The notes: a model not told the origin generated them from the letters alone. A stretch of 64,000 nt of DNA from Methanocellales archaeon (GCA_030018435.1 JASEEY010000001.1:11038-75037), one strand, 5' to 3'. Counted from the stretch's first letter, positions 1 through 54,746 are shown. Program-made: numbers and translations.

Positions 1-458
1 TTCAGCTTGACCGGCGTTAAATCGTTGGCAATTGCCGCCTCTACCCCATTAATCGCTTGCTGTAGGCAGTCTCTGCCTGTGATTATTTCGTATTTCTCAG
101 CATCTAATACATCAAGGCTGATGTTGACCCTGCGCAGACCAGCATCTTTCAGACCACTCGCGCAATGGTCTAGCAATGCTCCATTGGTGGTCATCGATAT
201 CTCCTTCATATAATTGGATGCGCGCCGAATGACCTCGCAGATATCATCCCGCAAAAGCGGCTCTCCGCCGGTCAGTTTAAGCTTTTCAATTCCAACTTTG
301 CCCCCAATCTCCACGATTTTCTCAATCTCGGCCGGACTCATCTCTCCCTTGGAGGAGTTTTGTCCTTCGTTGTGACAGTAGAAGCAGCGCAGATTACATC
401 GCTGTGTAACTGAGATACGCAGGCTGTTGACCTCTCTGCTGAATCTATCCTGCATGTG
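1..458 (-). CDS. moaA: GTP 3',8-cyclase MoaA (molybdenum cofactor biosynthesis, radical SAM); 3' part runs off window start
   Basis: Own translation of minus strand from ATG at 456-458: MQDRFSREVNSLRISVTQRCNLRCFYCHNEG...GGEPLLR...TTNG. CNLRCFYC is the MoaA-type radical SAM motif. The frame stays open to position 1. Confidence 0.8.
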
Positions 459-568
459 GATATGCTAAACTCAGCATAACGGTTAAACTTTTCTATTTTG
501 ATCGACCATTCTCGAAAAAGAGAAAAGATAATATAAGCGAATGACAATCACTTTGTCAAGGTGGTAGG

Positions 569-805
569 ATGGTCAAGGGCATAAAGATGGAGAAGGGCGA
601 CAAATTCTATGTGATTGCATTGTTGCTGGCGGCGCTGGGCGTACTCTGTGTCTTGGGATTTTTGGTGCATGAATCGCTTACTACTGTGATGGTGGCGGGC
701 GCAGGCTTTGGTTTGATCTCCCTAGGAGTGCTTTCACTGTTGTGGGGCATATACTCAGAGTATAAAGAAACGGGATCCATCAAAGAGGCATTGGGCTTAG
801 AGTAG
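569..805 (+). CDS. small hypothetical membrane protein (2 TM)
   Basis: 78-aa ORF with two hydrophobic helices. AAGGTGGTAGG lies immediately upstream of the ATG. Confidence 0.4.
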   Translation: MVKGIKMEKGDKFYVIALLLAALGVLCVLGFLVHESLTTVMVAGAGFGLISLGVLSLLWGIYSEYKETGSIKEALGLE

Positions 806-947
806 GTCGGCGGATACGCTCACTCATGCTAATAATCGATAACATATTTTGATTAATATCGCTAGGTTAATATTTGGACTAAATCTTAAACCTTACATAC
901 CTTCACCTTATACTTCTTTTATTTGAGCAGACCTATTGGTAATTGCC

Positions 948-963
948 ATTGATGGTTATCAAT
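948..963. promoter_or_regulatory. perfect inverted repeat ATTGAT-N4-ATCAAT 20 nt upstream of the hydrogenase small-subunit start; candidate operator
   Basis: Seen directly as attgatggttatcaat. An A/T-rich TATA-like stretch (ttttattt) lies about 30 nt further upstream. Confidence 0.35.
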
Positions 964-983
964 TTAAACTTGGGAGGGATTAA

Positions 984-1286
984 ATGGAAGATTTAAGACA
1001 TCTCGACATCCTAAAATTGGACAGGCGTACATTTCTCAAAGTTGCAGCGAGCATGGGTGCTTCTGTTTTTCTGGGAACTTATAAAGCGGACATCGTAAAA
1101 GCACTTGAATCGAGTGGTACAAATGTTGTGTGGTTGGAGGGTGCAGATTGTTGTGGTTGCTCAGAATCGTTCCTCAACGCTGCATATCCAGATGTCATAC
1201 AGGCAATCACAAAACTAAGCGTACACGTTGGTTATCATGAAACCCTGATGATGCAGCAAGGCATTTTCGTGGACGAAACCTGGTGA
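984..1286 (+). CDS. vhtG: [NiFe] hydrogenase small subunit, N-terminal fragment (Tat signal plus first Cys cluster); reading frame ends at TGA 1284-1286
   Basis: RRTFLKVAASMGASVF twin-arginine signal. VVWLEGADCCGCSES and HVGYHETLMM match small-subunit N-terminal motifs. Confidence 0.8.
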   Translation: MEDLRHLDILKLDRRTFLKVAASMGASVFLGTYKADIVKALESSGTNVVWLEGADCCGCSESFLNAAYPDVIQAITKLSVHVGYHETLMMQQGIFVDETW

Positions 1287-2104
1287 ATACTTCTGAGTTA
1301 AACGCAGAGTTGGCTCTTGAGGAATATATGACCGGAGAAAAGCCACTGGGTGTATTGGTCATAGAGGGTGCCATTGCGGATGGACCAGAGGGCTCGGGCA
1401 AGTACACCACAGTAGGAGGAAAGCCGTTCAAGGAAATGGTCCAGCGATGTGCTGCCAAAGCCTCATACGTTGTCGCTTTTGGCATGTGCGCGACATACGG
1501 CGGCATTCCGGCGGCGAGAGGCTCTGTAACGGACAATATGGGAGCACAATTCTTACAAACGACGAAAGGCGGAATTCTCGGTGCTGGCTATACATCTGGA
1601 GCAGGTCTGCCAGTAGTAAACATTCCTGGTTGCCCAGCACATCCAGACTGGATAATGTTAACGTTGGCAGCGATCATTCTTGGCAAGGGCGGGCTCATCG
1701 AATTGGATGAGTACAACAGACCAACTGCGTTCTTCCCACCAGATTACACCATACATGAGAACTGTCCAAGGCGTGGTTTCTATGATATAGGTCAATTGGA
1801 CACTGAATTTACTGAAGGGCACTGTCTATGGAAACTGGGATGCAAGGCACCATATACGCACGCAGACTGTGCGACGCGTTTGTGGAATAATCATCTGAAC
1901 ATGTGCACCCAAGCAGGGTCACCATGTATCGGTTGCGTGCAACCAGGATTCCCAGATAGTACAAGTCCGTTCTATGTGGAAATGGAGAAAGTACCGACGC
2001 TGGTAGGCGTGGACATAAATACCATAGCCAAAGCGGCTATAGGCGCAGCCGCAATTGGCGTGGGAGCGCATGCAGCGCGCAGAATAGGCATGAAGGAGGA
2101 ATGA
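1283..2104 (+). CDS. vhtG: [NiFe] hydrogenase small subunit, C-terminal part in the -1 frame relative to 984-1286 (apparent frameshift)
   Basis: GVLVIEGAI...VAFGMCATYGGIPAA...NIPGCPAHPDW...ENCPRRG...CLWKLGCKAPYTHADC...GSPCIGC are distal and medial FeS-cluster motifs of the small subunit. Frame 2 is open from 1241 and overlaps frame 0 by 45 nt. Confidence 0.8.
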   Translation: MNTSELNAELALEEYMTGEKPLGVLVIEGAIADGPEGSGKYTTVGGKPFKEMVQRCAAKASYVVAFGMCATYGGIPAARGSVTDNMGAQFLQTTKGGILGAGYTSGAGLPVVNIPGCPAHPDWIMLTLAAIILGKGGLIELDEYNRPTAFFPPDYTIHENCPRRGFYDIGQLDTEFTEGHCLWKLGCKAPYTHADCATRLWNNHLNMCTQAGSPCIGCVQPGFPDSTSPFYVEMEKVPTLVGVDINTIAKAAIGAAAIGVGAHAARRIGMKEE

Positions 2105-2108
2105 GCAA

Positions 2109-3917
2109 ATGGCAACAGTAGTAGTTGATCCACTGACAAGGATTGAGGGACACCTGAGACTCACAGCTGAAGTCAGCGATGGCGTAATTACGAATGCGCA
2201 CAGCTCTGGGACTATGTACAGGGGATTTGAACAGATTCTCAAGGGCAGGGATCCAAGGGATGCATCCAGGATAACACAAAGGATCTGCGGAGTATGTCCT
2301 ACCGGTCATGCAATGACATCGGTCAATGCATTGGATGATGCGTTCGGTCTAGCGGAATACATACCAAAGGATGCGCTGGTTGTGAGAAACATCGTGCAGT
2401 GTCTGAATACCATAGCCAGTCATGCGACGCATATATACGTGCTCTGGTTGCTGGACCTAGCGAACCCAGCATACAAGACGATCCTGGAGACGATAAACCT
2501 GAAGCCAGTCTGGGACGAACTCGTGGGCAGATTTGCACCGATCAGTCACTCCATAGAAGGTAAGGCAGTTCCACCAGGAAGTTCTTACTTGGCAGCCATC
2601 CCAGAGAAGAAGGCGCTACAAGAGGCGATAGCGGTGTTTGGAGGCAAGATGCCCATTCAGATGACCTCCATTGTAGGAGGAGTCACTTGCACTCCCACCG
2701 TCGCAGACATAGGCAGGATCGCATCCTACTACGTAAGGGTCATGGAGTTTGTCAACCATTACGTGCTAGGACTGGATGCGCTTGGCATAACAAGCGACCC
2801 GTTGGAAACCGCCGATAAATGGCTCGAACTCACACACGACGTCAGCAAGGACAAGGCAGTGGCAAACGTGTTGGACATATTGGGTGGTTTGCCAACCGAT
2901 GACTTCTCTCGAGCAGCGGGATGGAGCGATGTTGCATTGCTCGCAGCATTCGGCTCAGAACTCATAGGAGAAACGTTGCTGGGACTGCCAGCCAGCCTGA
3001 AGTTTGACACGATAGGTGGATATCCAGTGGACCCAACGAAGATCGGTTTCCTTTCATATGGCGTGTTCTATGCCATCAAAGAAGGATACGATCCAACCAG
3101 CCCGAAGGGTGAACGCTTCATCACATCCGGCTTCACAAGCGGCGATCTCAAGTATGAGGAGTTCAATCATCACAATGTGACAGAGCATGTGGCGCACTCA
3201 TTCTACACGAGCGGCAACGATTTGCATCCATGGGGCGGAGAAACCGAACCGGTTAAAACAACAGCGACGATCAAATACGATGATCCAGCCGCAAAATACA
3301 GCTGGCTCAAAGCACCGAGGTACAAGCAAATACCATGCGAAGTAGGACCACTAGCGAGAATGATCAATGCTAAAGAGCCTTTGGTCACGGGACTGGCAGA
3401 GACGTTCTTAGCCAACTGCTACTCGCCTGCAAACGTCTACACGAGGATGCTGGCAAGGGCACAAGAGACCATCATTCTTGCACGCGAATTAAAGAAATGG
3501 GTACTAGTCGACTTGGATTCAAATGGCAAATTCTACACGCATGCAGATCTATCGATGGCCAAGAACAGCCAGGGCGTAGGTCTCTGGGAAGCTCCAAGAG
3601 GCGCATTAGGACACTGGATCGTGACCGATGGAGCATCAAAGATAGCAAACTACCAGCCAGTTGTTCCTTCGACATGGAACCTTTGTCCCAGAGATACCAA
3701 CGGCAAACTGGGCCCGGTCGAGCTAGCGCTTGTGGGCAGTAAGGTCGGTCCGGTTGGCAACGTGCTTAGCACATTGGGCGCGATACCGCTATCCAAGGAA
3801 AACGAGAATCCAACAGGCATATTCCACGTAGGTAGATCGTTCGACCCATGCATCGCTTGTGCGGTGCACACGATCGACATGAACACCAACAAGAAATACG
3901 AGCTCAGAATACTCTAG
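2109..3917 (+). CDS. vhtA: [NiFe] hydrogenase large subunit with cleavable C-terminal extension
   Basis: 602 aa. N-terminal RICGVCPTGH and C-terminal DPCIACAVH Ni-Fe binding motifs. A 15-aa tail follows the His, which is the usual site for the maturation protease. Confidence 0.9.
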   Translation: MATVVVDPLTRIEGHLRLTAEVSDGVITNAHSSGTMYRGFEQILKGRDPRDASRITQRICGVCPTGHAMTSVNALDDAFGLAEYIPKDALVVRNIVQCLNTIASHATHIYVLWLLDLANPAYKTILETINLKPVWDELVGRFAPISHSIEGKAVPPGSSYLAAIPEKKALQEAIAVFGGKMPIQMTSIVGGVTCTPTVADIGRIASYYVRVMEFVNHYVLGLDALGITSDPLETADKWLELTHDVSKDKAVANVLDILGGLPTDDFSRAAGWSDVALLAAFGSELIGETLLGLPASLKFDTIGGYPVDPTKIGFLSYGVFYAIKEGYDPTSPKGERFITSGFTSGDLKYEEFNHHNVTEHVAHSFYTSGNDLHPWGGETEPVKTTATIKYDDPAAKYSWLKAPRYKQIPCEVGPLARMINAKEPLVTGLAETFLANCYSPANVYTRMLARAQETIILARELKKWVLVDLDSNGKFYTHADLSMAKNSQGVGLWEAPRGALGHWIVTDGASKIANYQPVVPSTWNLCPRDTNGKLGPVELALVGSKVGPVGNVLSTLGAIPLSKENENPTGIFHVGRSFDPCIACAVHTIDMNTNKKYELRIL

Positions 3918-3925
3918 GTGGTATC

Positions 3926-4645
3926 ATGGCAGAGCAAGTAGTAGAAAGATGGAACAAACCAATGATGGCCATGCACTGGATTCACATGGTCACATGCCTG
4001 ATACTGATCATCACCGGCTTCCGCATCTACCTAGGATGGGGGCTCCCCTCTGCCTATTCACAGGCAAGGGCATTGCACATGGTTGCAGTGGTAGGATTTC
4101 TAATAGCAAACCTCATACTCCTTCCATACGGCATGGTCCTGGAGGCCCTGGAGGGTATCAAACACTACGGTATTAAGCAGGGCATCAAACACTTCATGAA
4201 AGCGAACCTGTTCGGTATGGAAGATGCGCGCAGGCTCAAAGCCATTTTACTCAACTTCTTTGGAAAGCAAAAGGGGTATCCAGCGCTCACGATATACGAT
4301 GAAAAGGCAGGGCTTTATGCGAACAGGAGCCATCCAGTGACGAAAATCCTCATACCACTGGAGGGGATTTTCATCCTGCTCATAACCCTGTCTGGAATCG
4401 TCTTGTATAACATCAACTGGACAATTGTGGGACTCAACATAGGTGCTTTCCTGAGAAGCATTGCGACGGTGACGTTCTGGAGAACGTTGCATCTCGGCTC
4501 GATGTACTACTTCATCTTAGACCTGTTCATACACGTTGGCATATTACAGGCAGATACAAAGCTCAAGCATGCATGGAAAGCGATGTTTCTTACGGGCAAA
4601 GAAGACATAAAAACATCAGGGTACGCCAAAATTGTAAAGAAATAA
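3926..4645 (+). CDS. vhtC: hydrogenase cytochrome b membrane anchor subunit (Vht/Vho C-like)
   Basis: Polytopic membrane protein directly downstream of the large subunit. ATG at 3926 is preceded by GGTGGT, which favours it over the longer track start at 3848 that overlaps vhtA. His residues sit in the transmembrane helices. Confidence 0.7.
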   Translation: MAEQVVERWNKPMMAMHWIHMVTCLILIITGFRIYLGWGLPSAYSQARALHMVAVVGFLIANLILLPYGMVLEALEGIKHYGIKQGIKHFMKANLFGMEDARRLKAILLNFFGKQKGYPALTIYDEKAGLYANRSHPVTKILIPLEGIFILLITLSGIVLYNINWTIVGLNIGAFLRSIATVTFWRTLHLGSMYYFILDLFIHVGILQADTKLKHAWKAMFLTGKEDIKTSGYAKIVKK

Positions 4646-4680
4646 AGGGGAAAATTCTCCCCTTTCTTTTTATTTTTAAT
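4646..4680. terminator. bidirectional terminator between convergent vhtC and echF: GGGGA-AAATTC-TCCCC hairpin followed by a T-rich run
   Basis: Seen directly: aggggaaaattctcccctttctttttatttttaat. A T-rich tract after a hairpin is the typical archaeal termination signal. Confidence 0.6.
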
Positions 4681-4991
4681 TAATTCGTACTCCCTGCCTC
4701 TTGTTTCCTAATCAAGACCCCAAATCTACAAGCACCGATGCACAGATTGCACCGTATGCACCTGCCCACGTTTATCACTGGTATCAGCTTCTCATCTATA
4801 TGTGAGAGCGTAATCGCTCCTGGTACTGGGCAGACCGTCACGCACGCCTTACATTCTGTACATTCTCCTACCACAACCGGAAAATCCCTAAATCTCGGTG
4901 GGGTTGGCACTGGTTTCGTTTTTGCGAACAGGAATTTCTTAATCCATTCCGATCGTGCGAATTCGTGTAGATACCATATGAGTGAAGACAT
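4680..4991 (-). CDS. echF: 2x[4Fe-4S] ferredoxin subunit of Ech-type hydrogenase (EchF-like)
   Basis: CTECKACVTVCP and CIRCNLCIGACRFG are two CxxCxxCxxxCP ferredoxin motifs. It is the last gene of the ech-like operon. Confidence 0.75.
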   Translation of the reverse strand: MSSLIWYLHEFARSEWIKKFLFAKTKPVPTPPRFRDFPVVVGECTECKACVTVCPVPGAITLSHIDEKLIPVINVGRCIRCNLCIGACRFGVLIRKQEAGSTN

Positions 4992-4994
4992 GAA

Positions 4995-6089
4995 TCATCC
5001 CTCTGTGCACGCTATACATGGGTCGATGCTGGCGTAAATCGCCACGGCATCGGCTATTGACGGAGACCCTGCAAGCATATACCTAGCACAAGTTTCTAGG
5101 TTTAGTCTGGTGGGAGTTCTAATCGTGATGTCATCGATTTTTCCAGCACTGTCTGTCTTTACGAAGTATTTGAGCTCGCCTCTGGGTGCCTCACCACTGT
5201 GGAAACCCTCACCAGCCTTCACCCTGCCCTTATTTTGGATATTTCCTTTTGGCAGGTTATCTATGGCATCTCTGATGAGGTTCATGGACTGGAAGATCTC
5301 GTCAAATCTTACCAGGACTCTTGCTGTATTGTCTCCCTCTTTTCTTGAGATTGCCTTGAAGTCGAAGATATCTCTATATGTGGGATGTCTGAGTCTCCAG
5401 TCGGATTCTGGGTGACCCGAGCCCCTGGCAACAGGACCCACTGCGGGAACTTTTACCGCATCCTCATAGGAAAGAACGCCGATGCCCCTTGACCTGAGCT
5501 GCAGCAGCGGCCCATGTTCGAACATCCCCATATATCTCCTTATTCTCGGCTCCATCCTGTCAAGCATCTCCAATATCGTTTTCAAATGATGATCTTCAAT
5601 GTCCCATCTCACGCCGCCAAGGACGTTCCAGGACATGTGTACTCTGTTGCCGCTTACCATCTCCAATAAATCCATCGAATTCTCCCTAACGTCAAGCGTG
5701 TACATCGCAAGCGTTTCGTGCTCGATCCCGAGGAAATAAGACACGTTTGCTATGAGGTGGCTCTGTATCCTATCCAGCTCGTTAACGATGACGCGCAGAT
5801 ATTTTGCCCTGGGCGTCGGCTCGACATCGGAAATCTTCTCAAGGGTCTCTATGAACGTCATGCAATGGATATTGGAACATATGCCGCAGACTCTTTCTGC
5901 GAGATAGACGGCTTTGTTCCAGGGTTTGCCTTTTAGGATTCTCTCTATCCCCCTATGCATATATCCCAGTTCCACCTCAGCATCGACCACTCTCTCGCCC
6001 ACTGTGTGCAATTTAATCCTCAACGGCTCTTTTAGCGCTGGATGTAGAGGACCGATTGGTATGGATACGTCAACATTTTTTTCAATCAC
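4995..6089 (-). CDS. echE: group 4 [NiFe] hydrogenase large subunit (EchE/HycE/NuoD-like)
   Basis: 364 aa. N-terminal RVCGICSNIH and C-terminal DPCIACTEG Ni-binding Cys pairs. There is no C-terminal extension. Confidence 0.85.
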   Translation of the reverse strand: MIEKNVDVSIPIGPLHPALKEPLRIKLHTVGERVVDAEVELGYMHRGIERILKGKPWNKAVYLAERVCGICSNIHCMTFIETLEKISDVEPTPRAKYLRVIVNELDRIQSHLIANVSYFLGIEHETLAMYTLDVRENSMDLLEMVSGNRVHMSWNVLGGVRWDIEDHHLKTILEMLDRMEPRIRRYMGMFEHGPLLQLRSRGIGVLSYEDAVKVPAVGPVARGSGHPESDWRLRHPTYRDIFDFKAISRKEGDNTARVLVRFDEIFQSMNLIRDAIDNLPKGNIQNKGRVKAGEGFHSGEAPRGELKYFVKTDSAGKIDDITIRTPTRLNLETCARYMLAGSPSIADAVAIYASIDPCIACTEG

Positions 6090-6547
6090 TTGTTTGCCTC
6101 CTTTTTGTCATAGTCCTTGAATACGATAGGTGCCACTCCCAGAATTGCATCCAGGATTTCACTCGGCCTGGGCGGACATCCCGGTACCTCGGCAGCCACG
6201 GGTATGAAGTTTTTAATGGGAGGATAAACCCGCTTACCCTCCTGGTCGAATATACCTCCCGAGCACGCGCACGATCCAACGGCGACGACCACTTTCGGCT
6301 CTGGAATTTTATCATAAAGCTCCTTCAGCTTCGTCTTCCACTGCTCGGTAACGCAACCGGTTATTATCAGGATATCTGCTTCTCTTGGATTCGGGTGGTG
6401 TACGAAGATGCCATATTGCTCTATATCATATCTCGGACAAATGGTTGCAAGAACCTCGATGCTACAGCCATTACAACTACCAGCATCGGCGTAAGTCACG
6501 TGGAACGATTTGCGGCGTACGAAATTTTTGAGCTTATCGAAGATCAT
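6086..6547 (-). CDS. echC: group 4 hydrogenase small subunit (EchC/NuoB-like, proximal 4Fe-4S)
   Basis: 153 aa. CNGCSIE...ITGCVT...GSCACSGG Cys pattern of NuoB/HycG-like subunits. 4-nt overlaps with neighbours on both sides. Confidence 0.85.
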   Translation of the reverse strand: MIFDKLKNFVRRKSFHVTYADAGSCNGCSIEVLATICPRYDIEQYGIFVHHPNPREADILIITGCVTEQWKTKLKELYDKIPEPKVVVAVGSCACSGGIFDQEGKRVYPPIKNFIPVAAEVPGCPPRPSEILDAILGVAPIVFKDYDKKEANK

Positions 6548-6945
6548 TTTAGTATCCCCCTTATTCTCTCTCGAACTACATCCTTGGCAGCTTCTAGTGC
6601 TTTTTCATAGGGCTTGCCAGACCACACCACACTTTCCACCAGGTCCTTCGTTATCTCCGCCACATCCTCTTCTGAGATTAGATTTAGAGCATCGCATAGT
6701 AGGGTCAATCGTAAATCGAGGTCCACTTTTTTCTCTAGGCAGGCGCTCCAGTTCTGCTCTGCCCTGGAGTGAATGCCCATCAATCCTGCCATGTCGAGTT
6801 TTTCCATTATGCAATTTTCAAGCTTCTCCTTTGGAATTTTGTACAGCTTCGCGAGAGGCTCGATGACATCCTTTTGATATCTGTAACTTTTCAGCTTCCA
6901 TCTCTTCATCTCCGTAAGGTCGTAACTCTTCGCTATGGACTTCAT
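6544..6945 (-). CDS. small hydrophilic subunit of Ech-type hydrogenase (EchD-like position); function unknown
   Basis: ATG at 6943-6945 forms an ATGA stop-start overlap with the upstream 88-aa gene. The longer track ORF running to 7002 overlaps that gene. No recognisable motif. Confidence 0.45.
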   Translation of the reverse strand: MKSIAKSYDLTEMKRWKLKSYRYQKDVIEPLAKLYKIPKEKLENCIMEKLDMAGLMGIHSRAEQNWSACLEKKVDLDLRLTLLCDALNLISEEDVAEITKDLVESVVWSGKPYEKALEAAKDVVRERIRGILK

Positions 6946-7208
6946 GTCGCCACCCCCCATACGAAGTACGAGGCTAATACAAATCCACCCAGCACCAGCC
7001 ACATGAACAAGACCTCCAGTTTCTCAGAGAACTTTGCTCCGCTCTCTGAAAGGGGCGCCGTTAACAGGAGCAAAACTCCCGCTAGCACTATGCACGCGAT
7101 CATTGCCGGAGCGCGATATATGCTTCCATAGGATCTCACTACTTCTGCCACTGCTACCAGGAACGGTATCGCTGCAACCAAGATGCTCATGGAGACGAAC
7201 CTTCTCAT
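6942..7208 (-). CDS. 88-aa 3-TM membrane subunit, possibly NuoK/MnhC-like, in the ech-like operon
   Basis: Three hydrophobic helices. Translationally coupled to both neighbours with 4-nt overlaps. Confidence 0.45.
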   Translation of the reverse strand: MRRFVSMSILVAAIPFLVAVAEVVRSYGSIYRAPAMIACIVLAGVLLLLTAPLSESGAKFSEKLEVLFMWLVLGGFVLASYFVWGVAT

Positions 7209-8062
7209 AGGATCACTCCCTTTAGTAGATAGTACAACACCGCCACGCTGGCAATTGAGGCTTCGACCATTACTGAATGATACGGTGCCAGCATGGGGGT
7301 TAGTGCGCTAATGAAAGATAGTGAGGCAAGCAATAGGACGAATCCCAGCGCATAACCCCATAACGGAGCCGGACCAATGTATACCAACATGAACAGCGAC
7401 ATTAGCACGAATATCTCTATGCTTTCGCCGGTCAAAATGCCCGCTCTTAGAACTCCAAAGTGCTCCGTCTTGTATCCGGTGACTATGTCCTTCGCCATTA
7501 CTATGGCCAATGGGGAGTGGTGGATCTTGGATAGCATTATGGTATAGGTTGCAAGTGCGCACAGCGGAAGCTGGAACAGGAGCGGTCCATGGGTGCTCTG
7601 ATATGCTACTATGTCCGAGATCATCAACGAGTTCGTTTTAAGATAGACGATGGCCAAAACGGCAAATAATGGGAGCTCAGCAGTTGCAGAGTACACCGAT
7701 CTTACGCCGCCAAACTTTCCATAGGGGGAGCCGGATGATAGTCCAGCTCCATGCTCGACTAGCTTGTGTAGCATCAGCACCGCCAGTAATATCAGGAAGT
7801 TATATCCATTGGTGACAACGACCAATCCGAGTATCCAGGCTCCTATGAGAAGTGCGACCACTCCGAAATATACCGGCTTGCAGGCCGTTTCTGGAGCGGT
7901 CATCTCCTTTACGAAGAACTTCAATAGATGATAGAGTTCCTGCTGTATTGGCGGGCCAGGTCGACCCTGTATTCTTGCGATGATCTTCCTATGCAGTCCT
8001 AGGAACATTATGCCGACCAGGAATGCAACTGGTATCATGAGCAAGGTTCTAATCAAGAGCAT
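7205..8062 (-). CDS. echB: NuoH/HycD/EchB-like integral membrane subunit of Ech-type hydrogenase
   Basis: 285 aa, polytopic. The LHRKIIARIQGRPGP motif is typical of NuoH/HycD. It is the first gene of the operon. Confidence 0.75.
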   Translation of the reverse strand: MLLIRTLLMIPVAFLVGIMFLGLHRKIIARIQGRPGPPIQQELYHLLKFFVKEMTAPETACKPVYFGVVALLIGAWILGLVVVTNGYNFLILLAVLMLHKLVEHGAGLSSGSPYGKFGGVRSVYSATAELPLFAVLAIVYLKTNSLMISDIVAYQSTHGPLLFQLPLCALATYTIMLSKIHHSPLAIVMAKDIVTGYKTEHFGVLRAGILTGESIEIFVLMSLFMLVYIGPAPLWGYALGFVLLLASLSFISALTPMLAPYHSVMVEASIASVAVLYYLLKGVIL

Positions 8063-8086
8063 ATTCTTAACTCTTTAGTATCCTTA

Positions 8087-8128
8087 GTGTATCCATCTGA
8101 TACACGATATATGTATTGATTGATACAC
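8087..8128. promoter_or_regulatory. cluster of GTGTATC/GATACAC half-sites upstream of the ech-like operon, divergent from the RHH regulator gene
   Basis: gtgtatc-catct-gatacac palindrome at 8087-8105, plus another gatacac at 8122-8128 inside gtattgattgatacac. A TATA-like ttaagtatataa sits at about 8160. Confidence 0.35.
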
Positions 8129-8293
8129 TCGACTATACCAGAAACATAACGATAAATCGTTAAGTATATAAGGGGGGAATTCTTGTGTTGCTATAGACAC
8201 CTTTGATAAATCAGACAAATAACTTAGGAAATAGGGTAACTTTGGGAGGCGTTTTTGATACACCATGACACCACGACGGTTGCGAAAAAGACC

Positions 8294-8464
8294 ATGAGCG
8301 ACGTGAGGATAAAAATGCCTAAACCGATGTTAGAAGCCATTGACTTGGCAATTGAGATAGGACAGGCTGGCACCAGATCCGACTTTATTAGGATGGCGAT
8401 AGCCAACCAACTTAGAGAGACAACTATCACAGGAGAAATGAAGAAAAGAAAATTTGAGAAGTAA
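8294..8464 (+). CDS. ribbon-helix-helix (CopG/NikR-N-like) DNA-binding protein
   Basis: VRIKMPKPMLEAIDLAIEIGQAGTRSDFIRMAIANQL has the RHH beta-alpha-alpha pattern. It is divergent from the ech-like operon. The track start is 8255; the internal Met at 8294 is more likely. Confidence 0.5.
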   Translation: MSDVRIKMPKPMLEAIDLAIEIGQAGTRSDFIRMAIANQLRETTITGEMKKRKFEK

Positions 8465-8610
8465 GTGGAAAGATTTTACCTGATAATTTTTACTTGTCCA
8501 ACTACTGATATAGTGAAATAGGATTTTTCAGTACCAATTTTCAAGTCTCGTCTACATCCGCTCATCAAACATAAATATCATCAAAATAAACATCATTAGG
8601 AGGTATTTCA

Positions 8611-8838
8611 ATGACTTGTTTAACGGCTTGTTTAACTTGCACGGTCTGGGATGTCATTGGAGTTCTCCTAATCATTGGAGGAGTAATACGGTTGACGGCA
8701 CCAGCATGGTGCAAGAAGAAGGGGATCTGCTTCGCAGAATGGTTGATGAAGTGGATACCAAAATGGAGCGATAATATGGTAAGGCTTCTGGGCCTGGTGT
8801 TGATAGTAATCGGTGCAGCGCTTGTATACTTTCAATAG
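8611..8838 (+). CDS. hypothetical 2-TM membrane protein
   Basis: 75 aa. Strong AGGAGGT Shine-Dalgarno 7 nt upstream of the ATG. Confidence 0.5.
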   Translation: MTCLTACLTCTVWDVIGVLLIIGGVIRLTAPAWCKKKGICFAEWLMKWIPKWSDNMVRLLGLVLIVIGAALVYFQ

Positions 8839-8843
8839 GTGGC

Positions 8844-9092
8844 TCATTTCGTCTTATTCACGCCAGCTTCATCAAGCAAAGCTTTAAGCTCATCTATTTT
8901 CGCTACAGGCATACTGATGCCTTGCTTTGTATATCCAGTGTAGCGCTCTGTTTCTACGAATTTACGAATGTCTACGCGCTGCTCACTCTTCCACTCCGTC
9001 AGCCTAACTATAATCTTAGTGGATTTGTCCAATTCAATTTTTCCGATTTCCTTATCGACCATGTTTATCACCCTGCTATTCATGGCATGCAT
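8844..9092 (-). CDS. putative PC4-like ssDNA-binding protein
   Basis: RVDIRKFVETERYTGYTKQGISM resembles the PC4-family core (DIREyy...KGIsL). Weak call. Confidence 0.35.
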   Translation of the reverse strand: MHAMNSRVINMVDKEIGKIELDKSTKIIVRLTEWKSEQRVDIRKFVETERYTGYTKQGISMPVAKIDELKALLDEAGVNKTK

Positions 9093-9194
9093 TTTAAACG
9101 TTTAAAGTTTAATAGTTTAAAGAACTTGGCATTTATTAAAAAGGTGACCAAACAATTAATAGCAGTAAATCACAATATCGCATGGAGGAATGAA

Positions 9195-9551
9195 ATGGAG
9201 GACGTAACCAACATATTTGAAAATACGGGCTCCAGCCTGATAAAAGGCATCATAGAGAGGGGTGGTGTCGTTTTAGGAGAGAAAATCGAGGGTTTTGCCG
9301 GCGTTCTGGTAGAGGACAAGGTGTACGCGGATGAGTTGCAAAAGAAAGTGGAAGAGCAAACAGGGGTGAAAGGCTACATTTCAACTGACGAGCTGCCTGC
9401 CTATGGAATCTCCAAGGAGGAAAAAGAGGCGGTAGAAGGCAGATTTGGTGTTAAAGGAAACGATGTCATCATCCTGGTGGCGGACGAAGAGAGCAAAGCA
9501 AGAAGGGCACTGGAAGTGATAAAAAAAGATATTTCCAAGCAAAAACGTTAG
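9195..9551 (+). CDS. hypothetical protein (118 aa)
   Basis: Internal ATG at 9195 with GGAGG upstream. The longer track ORF from 8922 overlaps the minus-strand gene at 8844-9092. Confidence 0.45.
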   Translation: MEDVTNIFENTGSSLIKGIIERGGVVLGEKIEGFAGVLVEDKVYADELQKKVEEQTGVKGYISTDELPAYGISKEEKEAVEGRFGVKGNDVIILVADEESKARRALEVIKKDISKQKR

Positions 9552-9552
9552 A

Positions 9553-10179
9553 CTAAATCCTCGTCCGGATATATTCCCGAATCTTACCCATCACTTCCTC
9601 TTCCATTGTATGCAGGTCCTTTTCAGCATCTATCTTAACGATTCTCCTTGGGGATTCGTCTGCCAATTTGAGATAATTCGCCTGTACCTTTTTCATGAAT
9701 TCGATATCTTCAAACTTTGTCGTTTTCTTCCTAGCATTGCACCTTTTTAGTGCTACGCTTGGAGAGACGAGCAGTAAAAACGTTAAATCGGGCGGTATCG
9801 TCCATCCCGCATGTATTCTCTTAACCCAGTCGATAGGATTCGCAAAACGATCTGCAAGCGTCGCGCCCTGGTACGCATATCTGCTATCGGAGTAGCGGTC
9901 TGATATGACGATCTTGCCCTCATCCAATGCAGGCTTGATCACCTTGGCGACATGCTCTGCATGATCTGCCACAAAAAGGAACAGCTCCGCCAATGGGTTC
10001 ACATCAGAGACAATCGACTTGCGAACGACGTCTCCTATCCATCCCAGCGTTGGTTCTGTTGTTAGTGTGATGTCGTAATCGTTTCCCAGATGTGCTGCAA
10101 TCCTCTTTGCCATGGTGCTTTTCCCAGACCCATCGATGCCTTCAAAGGTTATGAGGATGCCTTTTTGCAACCGACCCAT
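9553..10179 (-). CDS. tmk: thymidylate kinase
   Basis: GILITFEGIDGSGKST P-loop. 208 aa with Tmk-like overall layout. Confidence 0.85.
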   Translation of the reverse strand: MGRLQKGILITFEGIDGSGKSTMAKRIAAHLGNDYDITLTTEPTLGWIGDVVRKSIVSDVNPLAELFLFVADHAEHVAKVIKPALDEGKIVISDRYSDSRYAYQGATLADRFANPIDWVKRIHAGWTIPPDLTFLLLVSPSVALKRCNARKKTTKFEDIEFMKKVQANYLKLADESPRRIVKIDAEKDLHTMEEEVMGKIREYIRTRI

Positions 10180-10327
10180 GCATCACTTTTTAGCACCCAA
10201 GTGCTTTAAGGTTTCTAATTTACAAACTTTAAAGTAACAATGCATAGATTTGATGGTAAAACCGATGATGCAACAAAAGGGGTAGCAACTCCTTCAACCA
10301 AACCTGCCACAAAATACAAACCATCCA

Positions 10328-10570
10328 TTGGCGGCGTTATATTCACCGCATTCAACCCCCTTTCCCAGTATTATGGGCGTGGTCTTTTTGATCTTGGGAC
10401 ACTGGATATCCGATATGTCCTGGTGCTCGTTTGTTTCATACAGCACGAACAAAGCGAGAGAATTTTTAGATTCGACAAAATACAGAATAATTGCAGGTAT
10501 CCTCGGCGCCATCATGATGGCATTTGGTCCTTACCTATTCGTCAAATATGGAATGCCATTGTACCTCTAA
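10328..10570 (+). CDS. hypothetical small membrane protein
   Basis: 80-aa ORF with two hydrophobic helices. Preferred over the overlapping 10240-10578 frame. Confidence 0.3.
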   Translation: MAALYSPHSTPFPSIMGVVFLILGHWISDMSWCSFVSYSTNKAREFLDSTKYRIIAGILGAIMMAFGPYLFVKYGMPLYL

Positions 10571-10640
10571 CCCTTTAGGCAAACAAAAGCTTCATTAGGA
10601 AAAAAGTGCTATTAGACCAGAAAGGGTACAGGTGTGAAAC

Positions 10641-12116
10641 GTGTTTACGAAGAAACTGGATGCCCCCGTAGGAGTTACTTTTGAAGATGTGCTGCTTCTG
10701 CCTGGCAAATCCAGGGTCGAGCCAAACCAGGCGAATGTCACGTCACGATTTTCAAAAAATATCTCACTCAACATTCCGATTGTGAGTGCTGCCATGGATA
10801 CGGTTACCGAGGCAAACATGGCAATTGCCATTGCCAGGGAGGGCGGCATAGGCGTAATTCACAGAAACATGAGCAAGGAGCAGCAAGTGGCGCAGATCAG
10901 GGAAGTTAAGAAGGCAGATGAATTGTTGGTAAGAGAAGTGGTTACCGTCAAGCCTGATGTCCCTATCCAAGCGGTATGGCGCCTCATGACCGAGGAAGAG
11001 GTTAGTGGTATTTCGGTTGTTGATAGCGCTGGCAAATTAGTTGGAATCGTCAGCCGGAGAGATGTGAGGCCTATCATAGAGTCTGAACCGACAAAAAGCG
11101 TGAAAGAGGTGATGACAAAAGACGTGGTCACAGCACACGAGAGCATATCCTTGGAAGGTGCGCTGGACAAAATGTATGAGCACAAGGTAGAGCGGTTGCC
11201 GATTGTAGATAAAAAGGGCAACCTTAAGGGTATAATATCTATGCAAGAACTCCTCCAGCGACGTCAGCATCCTCTGGCAATTAGGGATAATGAGGGGTTG
11301 CTCATGGTCGCAGCTGCGGTAAGCCCATTCGATGTAGATAGAGCGGTCGCCCTGGATAATGCTGGAGCTGATGTGCTCTTGGTGGACTGCGCTCATGCAC
11401 ACAATATGAATGTTGTAGACGGTGCCAGAAAGATCAAGAAAAAGGTCGATGCGGATGTGATAGTGGGGAATATCGCAACGGCAGAAGCGGCAAAGGAACT
11501 GGTTGATTTTGTAGACGGTGTCAAGGTCGGCGTAGGTCCTGGTTCGATTTGCACGACGAGGGTGGTAGCAGGAGTTGGCGTACCACAGATCACAGCGGTT
11601 GCGTCGGTAGCGGATGTTACGAGCAAATACGATGTTCCAGTGATTGCAGATGGTGGGATCAGATACTCGGGGGATATCGCAAAGGCGATTGCTGCCGGTG
11701 CCAACGTTGTCATGCTTGGCAACTTGCTCGCTGGTACAGATGAGGCCCCCGGCAAGCCGATTACAATCAAGGGACGGCGATACAAACAGTATAGAGGTAT
11801 GGGCTCTCTTGGAGCAATGACCGGCGGTGAGAGTATGGATCGATATCTCCGGAAGAGAGTAGAGGCAATCGGAGCAACGAAGTTCGTGCCAGAGGGGATC
11901 GAAGGGGCGATACCATACTCTGGAACCGTCAAGGATATGCTGTACCAATTGATTGGTGGATTGCGCTCTGCAATGGGATATGTTGGAGCGGGGAACATCG
12001 CAGAGATGCATAAAAAGGCGAAATTCATCAGAATCACGCCATCAGGATACATAGAGGGCCATCCACACGACGTCCTAATCACGGATGAAGCGCCAAACTA
12101 CCCCATGAAGGATTAA
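10641..12116 (+). CDS. guaB: IMP dehydrogenase with CBS pair
   Basis: GGIGVIHRN, CBS pair, catalytic GVGPGSICTTR, GGIRYSGD, MLGN. 491 aa. Confidence 0.95.
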   Translation: MFTKKLDAPVGVTFEDVLLLPGKSRVEPNQANVTSRFSKNISLNIPIVSAAMDTVTEANMAIAIAREGGIGVIHRNMSKEQQVAQIREVKKADELLVREVVTVKPDVPIQAVWRLMTEEEVSGISVVDSAGKLVGIVSRRDVRPIIESEPTKSVKEVMTKDVVTAHESISLEGALDKMYEHKVERLPIVDKKGNLKGIISMQELLQRRQHPLAIRDNEGLLMVAAAVSPFDVDRAVALDNAGADVLLVDCAHAHNMNVVDGARKIKKKVDADVIVGNIATAEAAKELVDFVDGVKVGVGPGSICTTRVVAGVGVPQITAVASVADVTSKYDVPVIADGGIRYSGDIAKAIAAGANVVMLGNLLAGTDEAPGKPITIKGRRYKQYRGMGSLGAMTGGESMDRYLRKRVEAIGATKFVPEGIEGAIPYSGTVKDMLYQLIGGLRSAMGYVGAGNIAEMHKKAKFIRITPSGYIEGHPHDVLITDEAPNYPMKD

Positions 12117-12163
12117 TTTTATATATCAATATCACTAACTAAAAGTTAGTAACCTAAAGTTAG
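12117..12163. promoter_or_regulatory. promoter of the heat-shock operon: TATA-like tttatatat plus CTAAC-N5-GTTAG palindrome (12135-12149) and a second GTTAG half-site (12159-12163)
   Basis: Seen directly: atcaCTAACtaaaaGTTAGtaacctaaaGTTAGtgag. From memory, this palindrome is the binding site reported for the A. fulgidus heat shock regulator HSR1. Confidence 0.55.
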
Positions 12164-12171
12164 TGAGAAAA

Positions 12172-12807
12172 ATGGATTCAGCGCAGCTATTAGACATCCT
12201 TGGCAACGAGAATAGAAGGAGAATACTCCAATTGCTTTCGCGTAGACCGTACTATATATCTGAGATTTCAGATCGATTAGACGTCGGTCCCAAAGCCATC
12301 ATCGAGCATCTGGATTTGCTCTCAAGTGTTGGTCTCGTTGAATTTCACACCGATAATCAGCGGCGCAAGTACTGCCACATTGCCCATAACGTCAGATTAG
12401 ATGTATTCGTTTCCCCACATTCATACGAGGTTGAGAGTGAGCCGGTAGAGATCGACACGAAAGAGCGGAAGCGATTGCGCCAAGAGTATGGCTCCATCAA
12501 TGCATTGTCAAACTTTAGCGATGAATTACAACGACTGATGTCCTTGCGCCAAGAATTGATGCTTGCACAGCGATCTACCCAAGCGATGATTTCAGAGTTA
12601 ATGGATGTGTGCGCTGAAACCATCGAACGCATCTCATCAGATTATTTAGAGGGCGAAATACTATTGTCCTTGATGAGGGGGGGGCAAACAACAGAAGCGC
12701 TTTCTGAGGAGCTGAACATTCCTCTATACGAAGCCAAAAAAGGATTATATCAACTGAAAGAAAAAGGAATTATCAAAAAAGATCGGGAGAAGTGGCACGT
12801 TAGATAG
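12172..12807 (+). CDS. winged-HTH (ArsR-like) transcription regulator, HSR1-like heat-shock regulator
   Basis: NENRRRILQLLSRRPYYISEISDRLDVGPKAIIEHLDLLSSVGLVEF is an ArsR-type HTH. It is the first gene of the regulator-cdc48-hsp20 operon. ATG at 12172; the track uses GTG at 12163. Confidence 0.7.
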   Translation: MDSAQLLDILGNENRRRILQLLSRRPYYISEISDRLDVGPKAIIEHLDLLSSVGLVEFHTDNQRRKYCHIAHNVRLDVFVSPHSYEVESEPVEIDTKERKRLRQEYGSINALSNFSDELQRLMSLRQELMLAQRSTQAMISELMDVCAETIERISSDYLEGEILLSLMRGGQTTEALSEELNIPLYEAKKGLYQLKEKGIIKKDREKWHVR

Positions 12808-12811
12808 GTGA

Positions 12812-15004
<2,193 letters not shown>

Positions 15005-15811: not shown

Positions 15812-16120
15812 CTATGTCTTGATGCTCTCTCGTTTGCTCAGCGTTGCCTGAATCTCGTCCAGCAACTCGTCCTCGGTCTTACCCTCGGTGGCAATGCCAA
15901 GCTCCTCTGCCATCTTTATTACCTTGCCTTTCTTCGCTCCCTTTGGTGCAGCTTCTAGGGATCGTTCAAACTCGCTCAATTCTTTCTCAGCTTCTCTCTG
16001 CGCCTTCTTGAACTCACCCATGGATTTGCCTACCGAGCGAGCCAGCTCTGGCAACTTCGACGCTCCAAAGAGGAGGATGATGATTACGCCTATGATCATT
16101 ATCTCATTTGGACCGATCAT
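15812..16120 (-). CDS. tatA: Tat translocase TatA/E-family protein
   Basis: N-terminal TM helix MIGPNEIMIIGVIIILLFGASKLPE followed by an amphipathic helix and an acidic tail. Confidence 0.85.
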   Translation of the reverse strand: MIGPNEIMIIGVIIILLFGASKLPELARSVGKSMGEFKKAQREAEKELSEFERSLEAAPKGAKKGKVIKMAEELGIATEGKTEDELLDEIQATLSKRESIKT

Positions 16121-16157
16121 TGATTTTCCACCTCATTCCAATATCTTGTCAACAATA

Positions 16158-16466
16158 TTAAACGTTCTGTTCCTCGGCTCGCTTCCTCAACTCTTTTTGA
16201 ATCTCATCCAGCAGTTCATCGTCAGTCTTGCCCTCGGTTTTGATTTTCAACTCCTCGGCCACCCTCTTTATCCTATCAACTTCCCCTTTTTCGGCCGCCC
16301 TCTTGGAGTACTGGAACTCGCTTAACTCGTACTCCGCTTCTTTCTGCGCCTTCTTGAACTCACCCATCGCCTTACCCATCGCCCTTGCCATCTCTGGTAG
16401 TTTATCTGTACCGAACAGCAGCAGTATTATTACAAATATCAGCAGTGTCTCCGTTGGTCCTATCAT
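16158..16466 (-). CDS. tatA: Tat translocase TatA/E-family protein (tandem paralog)
   Basis: MIGPTETLLIFVIILLLFGTDKLPEMARAMGKAMGEFKKAQKE has the same architecture as 15812-16120. Confidence 0.85.
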   Translation of the reverse strand: MIGPTETLLIFVIILLLFGTDKLPEMARAMGKAMGEFKKAQKEAEYELSEFQYSKRAAEKGEVDRIKRVAEELKIKTEGKTDDELLDEIQKELRKRAEEQNV

Positions 16467-16585
16467 CGAAACTACTCTTTCTGTTCAACTTTGACTTAAG
16501 GATTTTGGATATAAAAGGGCAAAGCGATGGAATGTATTACCGCATCGCTAAAACACGTAGGATAGATGCGCCTAAATCAAAGCGC

Positions 16586-53274: not shown

Positions 53275-53739
53275 TTGATGATGAGAATACACGTGCTCGG
53301 CTGTGGGAATTTGCTCGTTGGTGATGATGGCTTTGGTGTACACGTTCTAAAGGAACTGGAGAAAAGGGATTTGCCAAGCAACATCGAGTTGATTGAGGCT
53401 GGCACAGGAGGATTGGACATCCTAAACCTGATCGAGAGTACTGACAAGGCCATCATTATCGATGCCGTAAAAAGCGGTGGGAAAATTGGAAATGTGTATC
53501 GCTTTACCGAAAAAGACCTGCCTCCTTCAAATATGTCACTGCTGTCCCTTCATGACCTTGGTCTGGCCGATGTCCTGAAAACTGGTAGAATCATCCAGCC
53601 AAAGAGGATGCCAAAGGAGATTATCATCATCGGCTGCGAGGTTCAACAGGCAGACGAAATCAGGTTGGAACTGAGTCCCGATGTAGCCAAGGCGGTACCA
53701 GTTGTCGTGGATATGGTCTTAAAAGAGGTTGGTAATTAG
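53275..53739 (+). CDS. hydrogenase maturation endopeptidase (HycI/HyaD family)
   Basis: MMMRIHVLGCGNLLVGDDGFGVHV...IIIDAV matches the protease family. Confidence 0.85.
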   Translation: MMMRIHVLGCGNLLVGDDGFGVHVLKELEKRDLPSNIELIEAGTGGLDILNLIESTDKAIIIDAVKSGGKIGNVYRFTEKDLPPSNMSLLSLHDLGLADVLKTGRIIQPKRMPKEIIIIGCEVQQADEIRLELSPDVAKAVPVVVDMVLKEVGN

Positions 53740-54746
53740 CACACCCTCGGCACAGGATCGCCCATGGGAGTTTCCACAAACCTGGTACCACCTATTTCCG
53801 TTCTCATTATCACCCGCTTCCCCTTTTGGACTTCGCCGATGATTGCAGCATCTTTGCCATAGCGCGTTTTTCTGATCGCGGCCAGCACATCCTCCGCAGA
53901 CGTCTCCTCCACGCCGATGATGGCTTTGCCCTCATTGGCCATCTCAAGTGGGTCAATGCCAAGCATCTCGGATGCCGCCCTGACAGCGGGATTTATGGGA
54001 ATTGTCCCCTCCTCTATGACGATTCGCACCCCGCTCTTTTTCGCCATCTCGTTGAGGGCATTCGCTACGCCCCCGCGCGTAGGATCTTTCATGGCCGTTA
54101 TCCCCCCAACCTGCAACCCTGCTTGAATAGTGGACCAGATCGGTGATACGTCCGATATTAGATCGGTTTCAAAGTTGAATCCTTCCCTGTGCGCCAGTAT
54201 GGCAAAACCATGATCACCGATTGTGCCGGTTGTAATGATTTTGTTGCCGGGGCGCAATCCAGAATCCATAATTGGCTTTTCTGCAATCCCAATCCCGGTA
54301 GTGTTGATCATGATCCCATCGAACGCACCTTTTTCAACGACTTTCGTATCACCCGTCACAATCGCTCCACCCACCTCGCACATCGTCTCGTCCATGGAGT
54401 TCACGATTTTTCTTAGGTCCTCTATGAAAAATCCATCCACCATCACCATCGCGCTCGAAAGTGCGAGGGGTTTAGCACCCATCACCGCCAAGTCGTTAAT
54501 CGTGCCAGAAACTGCCAGACGCCCTATGTCGCCACCAGGAAAGAAGATTGGCTTGACCACATGGCTATCGGTCGTCAGCACGAGCGAGGTGTTATCTAAG
54601 GAGATGATCGCACCATCATCCAGTGCTTCTAATCCCATGCCGCCTGGCGTTTTTGTGTTTTTAAAACGCGCAAGAACGTTCACAATGAGTTCATGCATTA
54701 GCTCGCCACCTGCGCCATGAATGAGCGTTACCTCTTTCACTATCAC
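53736..54746 (-). CDS. hypE: hydrogenase maturation factor HypE
   Basis: 336 aa PurM-like. N-terminal TLIHGAGGELMHELI. C-terminus ends PRVC. Confidence 0.85.
   Translation of the reverse strand: MIVKEVTLIHGAGGELMHELIVNVLARFKNTKTPGGMGLEALDDGAIISLDNTSLVLTTDSHVVKPIFFPGGDIGRLAVSGTINDLAVMGAKPLALSSAMVMVDGFFIEDLRKIVNSMDETMCEVGGAIVTGDTKVVEKGAFDGIMINTTGIGIAEKPIMDSGLRPGNKIITTGTIGDHGFAILAHREGFNFETDLISDVSPIWSTIQAGLQVGGITAMKDPTRGGVANALNEMAKKSGVRIVIEEGTIPINPAVRAASEMLGIDPLEMANEGKAIIGVEETSAEDVLAAIRKTRYGKDAAIIGEVQKGKRVIMRTEIGGTRFVETPMGDPVPRVC

Follow-up and report, generated by a model that had tools for sequence, protein, structure and literature searches.

Can a group-4 [NiFe] hydrogenase work without an antiporter-like module? 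This question is raised by a locus in a stretch of 64,000 nucleotides (nt) from a Methanocellales archaeon (GCA_030018435.1; we refer to the whole stretch as the window and give all positions in its coordinates), where six minus-strand genes at 4680-8062 had been described preliminarily as a minimal Ech-type enzyme. If true, a hydrogenase of this kind would bear on how redox chemistry is coupled to ion translocation, but the evidence presented here removes this framing. Sequence homology identifies the six genes as ehaJ-K-M-N-O-P, the distal portion of an Eha-type, group 4h, [NiFe]-hydrogenase gene set, and the organism is predicted to encode a complete Eha of about 15 subunits. The enzyme appears to be an ordinary Eha, and a possible split arrangement of its genes may be what novelty is left: the eha cluster, strongly conserved elsewhere, may here be divided between its Eha-specific and its complex-I-like halves, with a promoter motif duplicated.

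The locus encodes the distal part of an Eha hydrogenase

All six open reading frames (ORFs) of the operon proposed in the preliminary description are present on the minus strand (285, 88, 133, 153, 364 and 103 amino acids (aa)), and adjoining genes abut or overlap by 4 nt. In transcription order they are:

7205-8062, minus strand: ehaJ, NuoH-like membrane subunit of 285 aa (PF00146 NADHdh, E=6.6e-30)
6942-7208, minus strand: probable EhaK, 88 aa, about three transmembrane (TM) helices, grand average of hydropathy (GRAVY) 1.30, in the EhaK/EhaL position
6544-6945, minus strand: ehaM, hydrophilic Eha-specific subunit of 133 aa (PF09218, DUF1959/EhaM, E=9.1e-31)
6086-6547, minus strand: ehaN, NuoB-like small subunit of 153 aa (PF01058, E=2.3e-30; NF005012, E=2.9e-36)
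4995-6089, minus strand: ehaO, NuoD-like [NiFe] large subunit of 364 aa (PF00346 and PF00374)
4680-4991, minus strand: ferredoxin-like subunit in the EhaP position, NuoI-like, 103 aa (Fer4 families, E~1e-8; NuoI-like NCBIfam matches)

We assign the locus to Eha because of the best homologues of its large subunit, the presence of EhaM and the clustering of ehaA-P in relatives (see below). The best 120 of more than 6,000 matches to EhaO are EhaO or Eha-context proteins at 54-61% identity, and three matches are closer (61-93%). Within these 120, the proteins are either named 'energy-converting hydrogenase A subunit O' or unnamed, the unnamed ones coming from Methanobacteriales, Methanomicrobiales, Archaeoglobi and MSBL1. 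The gene order follows the canonical cluster (L004; ehaJ-K-(L)-M-N-O-P), the operon having been described previously (PMC3087415), and EhaM sits directly upstream of the small subunit EhaN. EhaL is absent here, in all relatives of the clade and in an Archaeoglobi locus (L002).

The assignment to group 4 thus stands, while the Ech label does not. An Ech (group 4e) hydrogenase with a rearranged gene order would account for the generic complex-I-like modules (homologues of NuoH, NuoB, NuoD and NuoI), but it is extremely improbable given that the closest large-subunit homologues belong to Eha, that the Eha-specific EhaM is encoded, that the Pfam families of EhaA-I lie upstream in relatives and that there is no EchA. 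The labels EchE and EchD were rejected on the same grounds: the large subunit is nearest to EhaO, and the small hydrophilic protein taken for an Ech subunit is EhaM. What had looked like an odd order of Ech genes (B-small-D-C-E-F) is simply ehaJ-K-M-N-O-P.

The individual subunits fit this assignment. The ehaJ product is 92% identical to EhaJ of the Methanocellales metagenome-assembled genome (MAG) CSMAG_2674 and about 52% identical to proteins named 'energy-converting hydrogenase A subunit J' at the Joint Genome Institute (JGI). In EhaO both Ni-binding CxxC pairs are intact, as had been reported (C68xxC71 in ERVCGICS and C358xxC361 in DPCIAC), and EhaN has its cysteines (C25, C28, C93 and C124) at NuoB-type positions. 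The length of EhaM was counted from an ATG that overlaps the upstream stop codon, and the PF09218 match covers residues 37-147 of a 152-aa ORF; the same family is also called in an identical Logan contig. Two CxxCxxCxxxC motifs (2x[4Fe-4S]) occur in the 103-aa protein, whose gene is also found in two related loci (L003 and L015). Searches of the PDB returned no Eha structure; the nearest solved structure for EhaO is the Mbh alpha subunit (6CFW_L, E=1.6e-63).

Profile searches of the 88-aa and 133-aa proteins had been proposed as a check. The 133-aa protein matches the EhaM family, as given above. The 88-aa protein has no Pfam match at E<0.1. A hidden Markov model (HMM) of its family, run against 1002 sequences including 1000 shuffles, ranked EhaK of the canonical cluster first with a weak score of 13.8 bits and gave no match to EhaL, so the protein is probably EhaK. 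Its gene has the same length in four relatives (L003, L007 and L009 among them) and is therefore intact, not the fragment of a disrupted larger gene that had been considered.

The preliminary description was right that no large antiporter-like subunit of the size of NuoL or EchA is encoded at the locus. No ORF of at least 400 aa with at least 10 predicted TM helices occurs in the 64-kb window, whose sole large polytopic membrane protein is a 348-aa, 9-TM ORF. In particular, the window holds no ORF resembling the ~600-aa NuoL-like EchA of the six-gene Ech operon, and neither the window nor the clusters of the relatives contain Mrp-like genes as expected for Mbh (group 4d). The relatives instead carry EhaH, a 217-aa protein of family PF10125 ('NADH dehydrogenase subunit N related'), many homologues of which also score with the antiporter family PF00361; EhaH itself has no PDB sequence match at E<0.01. 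The antiporter-related subunit of Eha is this short protein, so canonical Eha never has a full-length NuoL/EchA subunit and the absence of one here is no deviation.

EhaA-I are encoded elsewhere in the same genome bin

The window lies on a 156,235-bp contig of the QMC78 MAG (NCBI label Methanocellales), with proteins MDI6888086-101 and the 88-aa protein as QMC78_00125. No trace of ehaA-I was found in the window: tblastn with EhaA-I queries from two loci (L002 and L003) against all 64 kb gave nothing below E=0.03. A separate 63,880-bp contig of the same MAG carries EhaH (MDI6888709.1/QMC78_03310, a member of the 90% cluster of EhaH), EhaI (QMC78_03305) and EhaB (QMC78_03340). With EhaA-I on this other contig, the subunit set is therefore complete and its clustering is not, at least in this assembly.

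The same sequencing run (SRR23186780) is also represented by Logan contigs (L001, L005 and L012). One of these, L012 (3,632 bp), holds all nine genes ehaA-I, intact and with Eha Pfam matches (for instance, EhaH matches PF10125 at E=1e-80), and runs from ehaI into the first 40 nt of ehaJ. Because ehaA-I are intact in the MAG and this contig continues from ehaI into ehaJ, we conclude, at the level of sequence, that the organism encodes a complete Eha. The two halves (ehaA-I and ehaJ-P) diverge alike from relatives, and both are under purifying selection (own-branch omega 0.05-0.24). The ehaJ gene in the window has the highest own-branch rate of nonsynonymous change (dN) among the compared eha genes (0.036, omega 0.24; others 0.005-0.027), as would fit a gene that was somewhat relaxed or adapted following the rearrangement, or else a paralogous copy.

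Intact ehaA-I in the same MAG and run, together with purifying selection on both halves, refute the lack of a membrane or antiporter-like module at the organism level. The idea of a stripped-down enzyme falls with it, while the fallback idea of a membrane module encoded elsewhere agrees in essence with our findings. A six-subunit hydrogenase working without any antiporter-like or extra membrane module is now very improbable. It has in its favor that only six genes stand between a terminator-like hairpin and a promoter-like region and that the 64 kb contain no antiporter-like gene; it conflicts with the selected, intact ehaA-I, with the close relatives that hold all 15 genes together and with the general lack of a full-length NuoL/EchA subunit in canonical Eha. 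To our knowledge, the EhaA-I subunits have no other partner, which also counts against it.

The eha cluster is contiguous in close relatives

We compared the locus with contigs of close relatives, counted as seven: L003/L006 (MAG CSMAG_2674), L007 and L008 (JGI), and L009, L010, L011 and L016 (Logan). Across the eha genes, they share ~86-92% nucleotide identity with the window. In all seven, ehaA-B-C-D-E-F-G-H-I lie directly upstream of ehaJ with an ehaI-ehaJ spacer of 10 nt, so that the full order is ehaA-B-C-D-E-F-G-H-I-J-(88 aa)-M-N-O-P in one cluster, with EhaH encoded within ehaA-I. The Archaeoglobi cluster has the same layout. An EchA-like ORF just beyond the described region had been named as a finding that would overturn the minimal enzyme; in relatives the antiporter-related EhaH does lie upstream, whereas in this MAG it is on a different contig.

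When GTDB species genomes were scanned, EhaJ matched the CSMAG_2674 contig alone. We considered whether a 79%-identical EhaO (P0002) might be a paralogue from the same genome, but it proved to come from a different MAG, which shows the same synteny.

One contig from an independent sample of a related species (L016, SRR30965919) carries ehaA-I and ends 9 nt past the ehaI stop codon, at the ehaI|ehaJ boundary. With ~16 contig ends inspected, the chance of such a coincidence is ~20%; the end could hint at a rearrangement-prone boundary.

Anatomy of the breakpoint

The junction upstream of ehaJ consists of the following elements:

8022-8051, minus strand: S2, ehaJ codons 4-13, 30 nt identical to the last 30 nt of L012 from the same run
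8052-8141, minus strand: U, 90 nt made of 79 nt of non-coding sequence and the new first 11 nt of ehaJ, with a nested hairpin and AT-rich TATA-like stretches
8142-8171, plus strand: S1, copy of the ehaA promoter motif (palindrome AACGATAAATCGTT and TATATA box), pointing away from ehaJ and towards the next gene
8172-8215, plus strand: leader', a stretch of ~44 nt that by local alignment shows homology to the 5' leader of ehaA in L012
8255-8464, plus strand: ribbon-helix-helix (RHH) gene, 69 aa (MDI6888094.1; weak PF17723/PF01402 matches)

The position of the breakpoint is seen directly in these comparisons. Nucleotide homology to the CSMAG_2674 locus (L003) ends at 8053, that is, at nt 10 of ehaJ, and the first 10 nt of ehaJ in the window (ATGCTCTTGA) are unlike those of all relatives. 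At the ehaJ start the relatives and L012 read ATGGAAATA(G/A)TTAGAACC, compared to ATGCTCTTGATTAGAACC in the window. The window gene thus has a start codon at the native position, seven replaced bases and then identical sequence. L012 ends with the ehaI stop codon, 10 nt, ATGGAAATAG and TTAGAACCTTGCTCATGATACCAGTTGCAT, and the window has ATGCTCTTGA followed by those same 30 nt.

No detectable homologue of U was found in L012, L003, L007 or L009, with all local alignments falling within the shuffle distribution. A likeness of U to the 3' end of ehaI, noticed by eye, was dropped for the same reason, and a match of 16/19 positions to the region left of the promoter motif in L007 is marginal. The RNA fold of the U region (-20.8 kcal/mol) has z=-3.3. 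Its non-coding part (8063-8141, minus strand) contains two GTGTATC direct repeats and an inverted copy, GATACAC, a motif unique in the window and all loci compared. This structured stretch could be a regulator binding site, a 5' untranslated element or the remnant of an inserted element.

S1 matches the opening 30 nt of L012 at 30/30 positions. In L012 this stretch precedes ehaA by ~90 nt, and the motif is also kept upstream of ehaA in other loci (L007, L009, L016 and L017). The window contains a single site, with none expected by chance. The leader' alignment scores 27 against a shuffle mean of 15.4 (standard deviation (sd) 2.1, thus ~5 sd), a score reached by 0/500 shuffles. Upstream of ehaJ lie a 192-nt non-coding stretch and then the divergent RHH gene, as the preliminary description had it (a promoter region and a divergent regulator).

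The RHH protein is the sole member of its 90% cluster, with no relative at >=90% identity in a collection of 15 billion proteins. The single relative found in a scan of JGI metagenomes shares 64% identity and lies in an AT-rich contig that is unrelated. The gene gave no match in PHROGs or in phage searches, and its two neighbours gave none in PHROGs. Synteny resumes only at 8508, where the window matches L013, the contig of a relative; L013 and the canonical L007 stem from one JGI metagenome. The RHH gene is absent at the syntenic site of this contig, which holds a different small islet there (205-aa and 68-aa genes, L013 469-1285). Since homology to the relatives stops at 8053 and synteny resumes only at 8508, the segment 8054-8507 is a mosaic junction specific to this genome. 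In addition, L013 has two extra genes (PALP and LysE) between its thymidylate kinase and IMPDH genes, making the neighbourhood a variable spot.

Genes that flank the canonical cluster on its left (DUF4430, DUF6580, Usp, ArsR, Trx, ArsP, Ccm and TatC) were also sought in the window by tblastn, and none was found. With neither EhaA-I nor these flanking genes detected, the window hides no local inversion. To locate the sequence left of ehaA in this run we turned to the DUF4430 cluster, but its members come from other runs.

Is the split real?

The Logan contigs of the same run meet the MAG on both sides of ehaJ. L001 matches window positions 1-7216 at 99.99% and L005 matches 8142-13477 at 100%, and L012 starts with a 30-mer common to L005 and ends with a 30-mer common to ehaJ of the window. 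These ends are the signature of forks in a k=31 assembly graph, so k-mers joining ehaI to ehaJ and k-mers joining U to ehaJ are both in the run. The MAG assembler ran through the U-ehaJ junction. We infer that the operon is truly split at ehaI|ehaJ, with a short ehaJ remnant left after ehaI, and that this is the organism's only arrangement; we put the probability of such a split at roughly 55%. It is favored because assemblers rarely join unresolved repeats, because the ATG is in frame and at the native position (suggesting that expression has been selected for), because a copy of the ehaA promoter motif lies close by (80 nt from ehaJ), and because the 90% cluster of the MAG contains no second full-length EhaJ. 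Several observations weigh against it. The eha cluster has been termed 'highly conserved' (PMC9635834), and all seven contigs of relatives are canonical with contiguous ehaI and ehaJ. The canonical ehaI-ehaJ junction exists in the same run, so that at least the first 40 nt of ehaJ occur in two contexts. No Logan contig spans 7217-8141, and the run has no intact copy of this EhaJ on record. A synonymous single-nucleotide polymorphism (SNP) at 7191, 26 nt from the end of L001 and absent from the MAG, points to some population heterogeneity. Finally, the role of S1 as a promoter and any co-regulation of the two halves are purely conjectural.

The same data could reflect an assembly chimera at a repeat, in which the real operon is a canonical ehaA-P, a partial copy of ehaJ sits next to the RHH gene and the assembler switched copies within ehaJ. 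The canonical order in every relative, the reading of ehaI, a 10-nt spacer and the ehaJ start in L012, the breaks of Logan contigs on either side of ehaJ (7216 and 8142) in a run lacking an intact EhaJ on record, and the high own-branch dN of the window ehaJ all agree with this scenario. We consider it unlikely, if a serious competitor. Assemblers normally break at unresolved repeats and do not join them, and the end of L001 is a variant k-mer path (the SNP at 7191) with no 30-mer in common with the window allele, and so not a clean repeat boundary. Among the homologues there is no second EhaJ of this MAG or run, either full-length or of at least ~150 aa, and the chance that a non-functional copy has an in-frame ATG exactly where the native start lies is about 1 in 64. 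Strain polymorphism, with two near-identical populations (one canonical and one rearranged) and a mosaic MAG, overlaps with the real split and would explain both junctions in one sequencing run, the synonymous minor allele at 7191 and the fragmentation of ehaJ in the k=31 assembly between flanking contigs that are unbroken for 5.3 and 18 kb. We regard it as rather doubtful: L012 has a single continuation after ehaI, so any genome with ehaI has the ehaJ start adjoining it; the 63.9-kb contig with ehaA-I would need to be strain-specific or shared; and the diverged leader' and foreign RHH gene suggest an older and more complex history than that of a recent variant. Another scenario has the dominant strain cut between ehaA-I and ehaJ-P and, at its extreme, lacking or not using ehaA-I, with EhaJKMNOP acting as a minimal hydrogenase and the ehaA-I contig coming from a co-occurring canonical strain. 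This is very unlikely.

Proposed function and arrangement

By analogy with methanogen Eha, the complex would consist of a hydrogenase module (EhaN/EhaO), an electron-transfer module (the 2x[4Fe-4S] subunit), the hydrophilic EhaM and a membrane arm (EhaJ, EhaK and EhaA-I). EhaO/EhaN would oxidize H2, and electrons may pass through the [4Fe-4S] clusters of EhaN to the 2x[4Fe-4S] subunit and on to ferredoxin. Ions entering through EhaH/I/J and the small subunits of the membrane arm would drive this uphill reduction of ferredoxin, or the reaction may run in reverse. H2-driven ferredoxin reduction powered by an ion gradient is the presumed function of Eha (PMC3087415), and EhaH/I/J are cited as its ion-translocating part (PMC9635834).

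If the operon is really split, the cluster would have been broken at ehaI|ehaJ, and ehaJ would start from a new in-frame ATG at its native position. Novel, structured sequence of 79 nt would now precede the gene, then the ehaA promoter motif in inverted copy, with an RHH gene acquired alongside. In that case each half would form a transcription unit of its own, with a 30-nt putative promoter element common to both. Whether or not this holds, the case carries a caution: apparent 'minimal' operons on MAG contigs need to be compared with close relatives and with other contigs of the bin.

Genomic neighbourhood

The eha genes (4680-8062, minus strand) converge on those of a Vht-type hydrogenase (984-4645, plus strand) that includes a cytochrome b subunit, an arrangement present in all clade members seen (L003 and L015). 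Between the convergent ehaP and cytochrome-b genes lies one further feature:

4646-4679, either strand: putative bidirectional terminator, a GC-rich hairpin with T/A runs on its flanks

The hairpin folds at -13 to -14 kcal/mol (z ~-1.9) on either strand, which would fit a role as a bidirectional terminator.

In a lineage that bears the label Methanocellales, we would not have expected Eha to be paired with a cytochrome-linked hydrogenase. The flank of a relative (L009 1-2700) also carries CcmB/CcmC-family genes of the cytochrome-c maturation type. The small-subunit gene of the Vht-type enzyme (984-2104, plus strand) is split at ~1274, leaving an ORF of 100 aa and another of 273 aa that do not share a frame. 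Compared with L003, where a single ORF of 374 aa is present, one nucleotide is deleted, and this deletion causes the split; the same split occurs in the Logan contig of the same run. The gene could be a frameshifted pseudogene, or the deletion could be an error common to both assemblies of the same reads.

Two further ORFs, ~45 kb away from the hydrogenase genes, resemble a hydrogenase maturation endopeptidase (53275-53739, plus strand) and HypE (53736-54746, minus strand), as judged by N-terminal motifs only. At 15812-16470 (minus strand) there are two tandem TatA-like genes with a repeated 25-mer (at 15997 and 16343), and the same pair occurs in L013.

Comparison with known hydrogenases

Among characterized complexes, Mbh of Pyrococcus furiosus (group 4d; PDB 6CFW) provides the nearest structure for the large subunit and shares the general architecture of a peripheral and a membrane arm. 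Its antiporter module, which is of the Mrp type and contains a full-length MbhH, sets Mbh apart from the enzyme described here. Ech (EchA-F) of Methanosarcina and Thermoanaerobacter (group 4e) is likewise membrane-bound and ferredoxin-linked, with NuoH-, NuoB-, NuoD- and NuoI-like subunits. However, Ech has a large NuoL-like EchA and an EchD, whereas the complex described here has EhaM and the Eha membrane subunits, and its large subunit has an affinity to EhaO.

The nearest homologues outside the clade are in the Eha of Archaeoglobi (GCA_029982835.1, L002) and MSBL1/Persephonarchaea (61% for EhaO and 56% for EhaJ-type matches). In the Archaeoglobi locus, too, only one EhaK-like ORF separates EhaJ from EhaM; this ORF had not been called as a gene, and we read it from the DNA. 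The locus differs from the window in its contiguous cluster from ehaA to the polyferredoxin, which is 209 aa long.

The system most like this one is the Eha of Methanothermobacter and Methanococcus (EhaA-T; group 4h). EhaO is 55-61% identical to its counterparts, EhaJ, EhaM and EhaN are in the same order, and both the relatives and the same MAG carry EhaA-I with Eha-specific Pfam families. In contrast to methanogen Eha, ehaJ-P are apart from ehaA-I in the window, there are ~15 subunits instead of 20 (with no EhaL and no EhaQ-T), and the 103-aa 2x[4Fe-4S] NuoI-like protein replaces the 6x[4Fe-4S] polyferredoxin EhaP. Lineage-specific gain and loss of subunits and the use of different ferredoxins have been described for Eha in a paper that discusses the Archaeoglobi and MSBL1/Persephonarchaea clusters (PMC9635834). 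The lineage labelled Methanocellales carries a reduced Eha of ~15 subunits, in which EhaL is missing, a single EhaK-like protein is present and the ferredoxin is small and NuoI-like.

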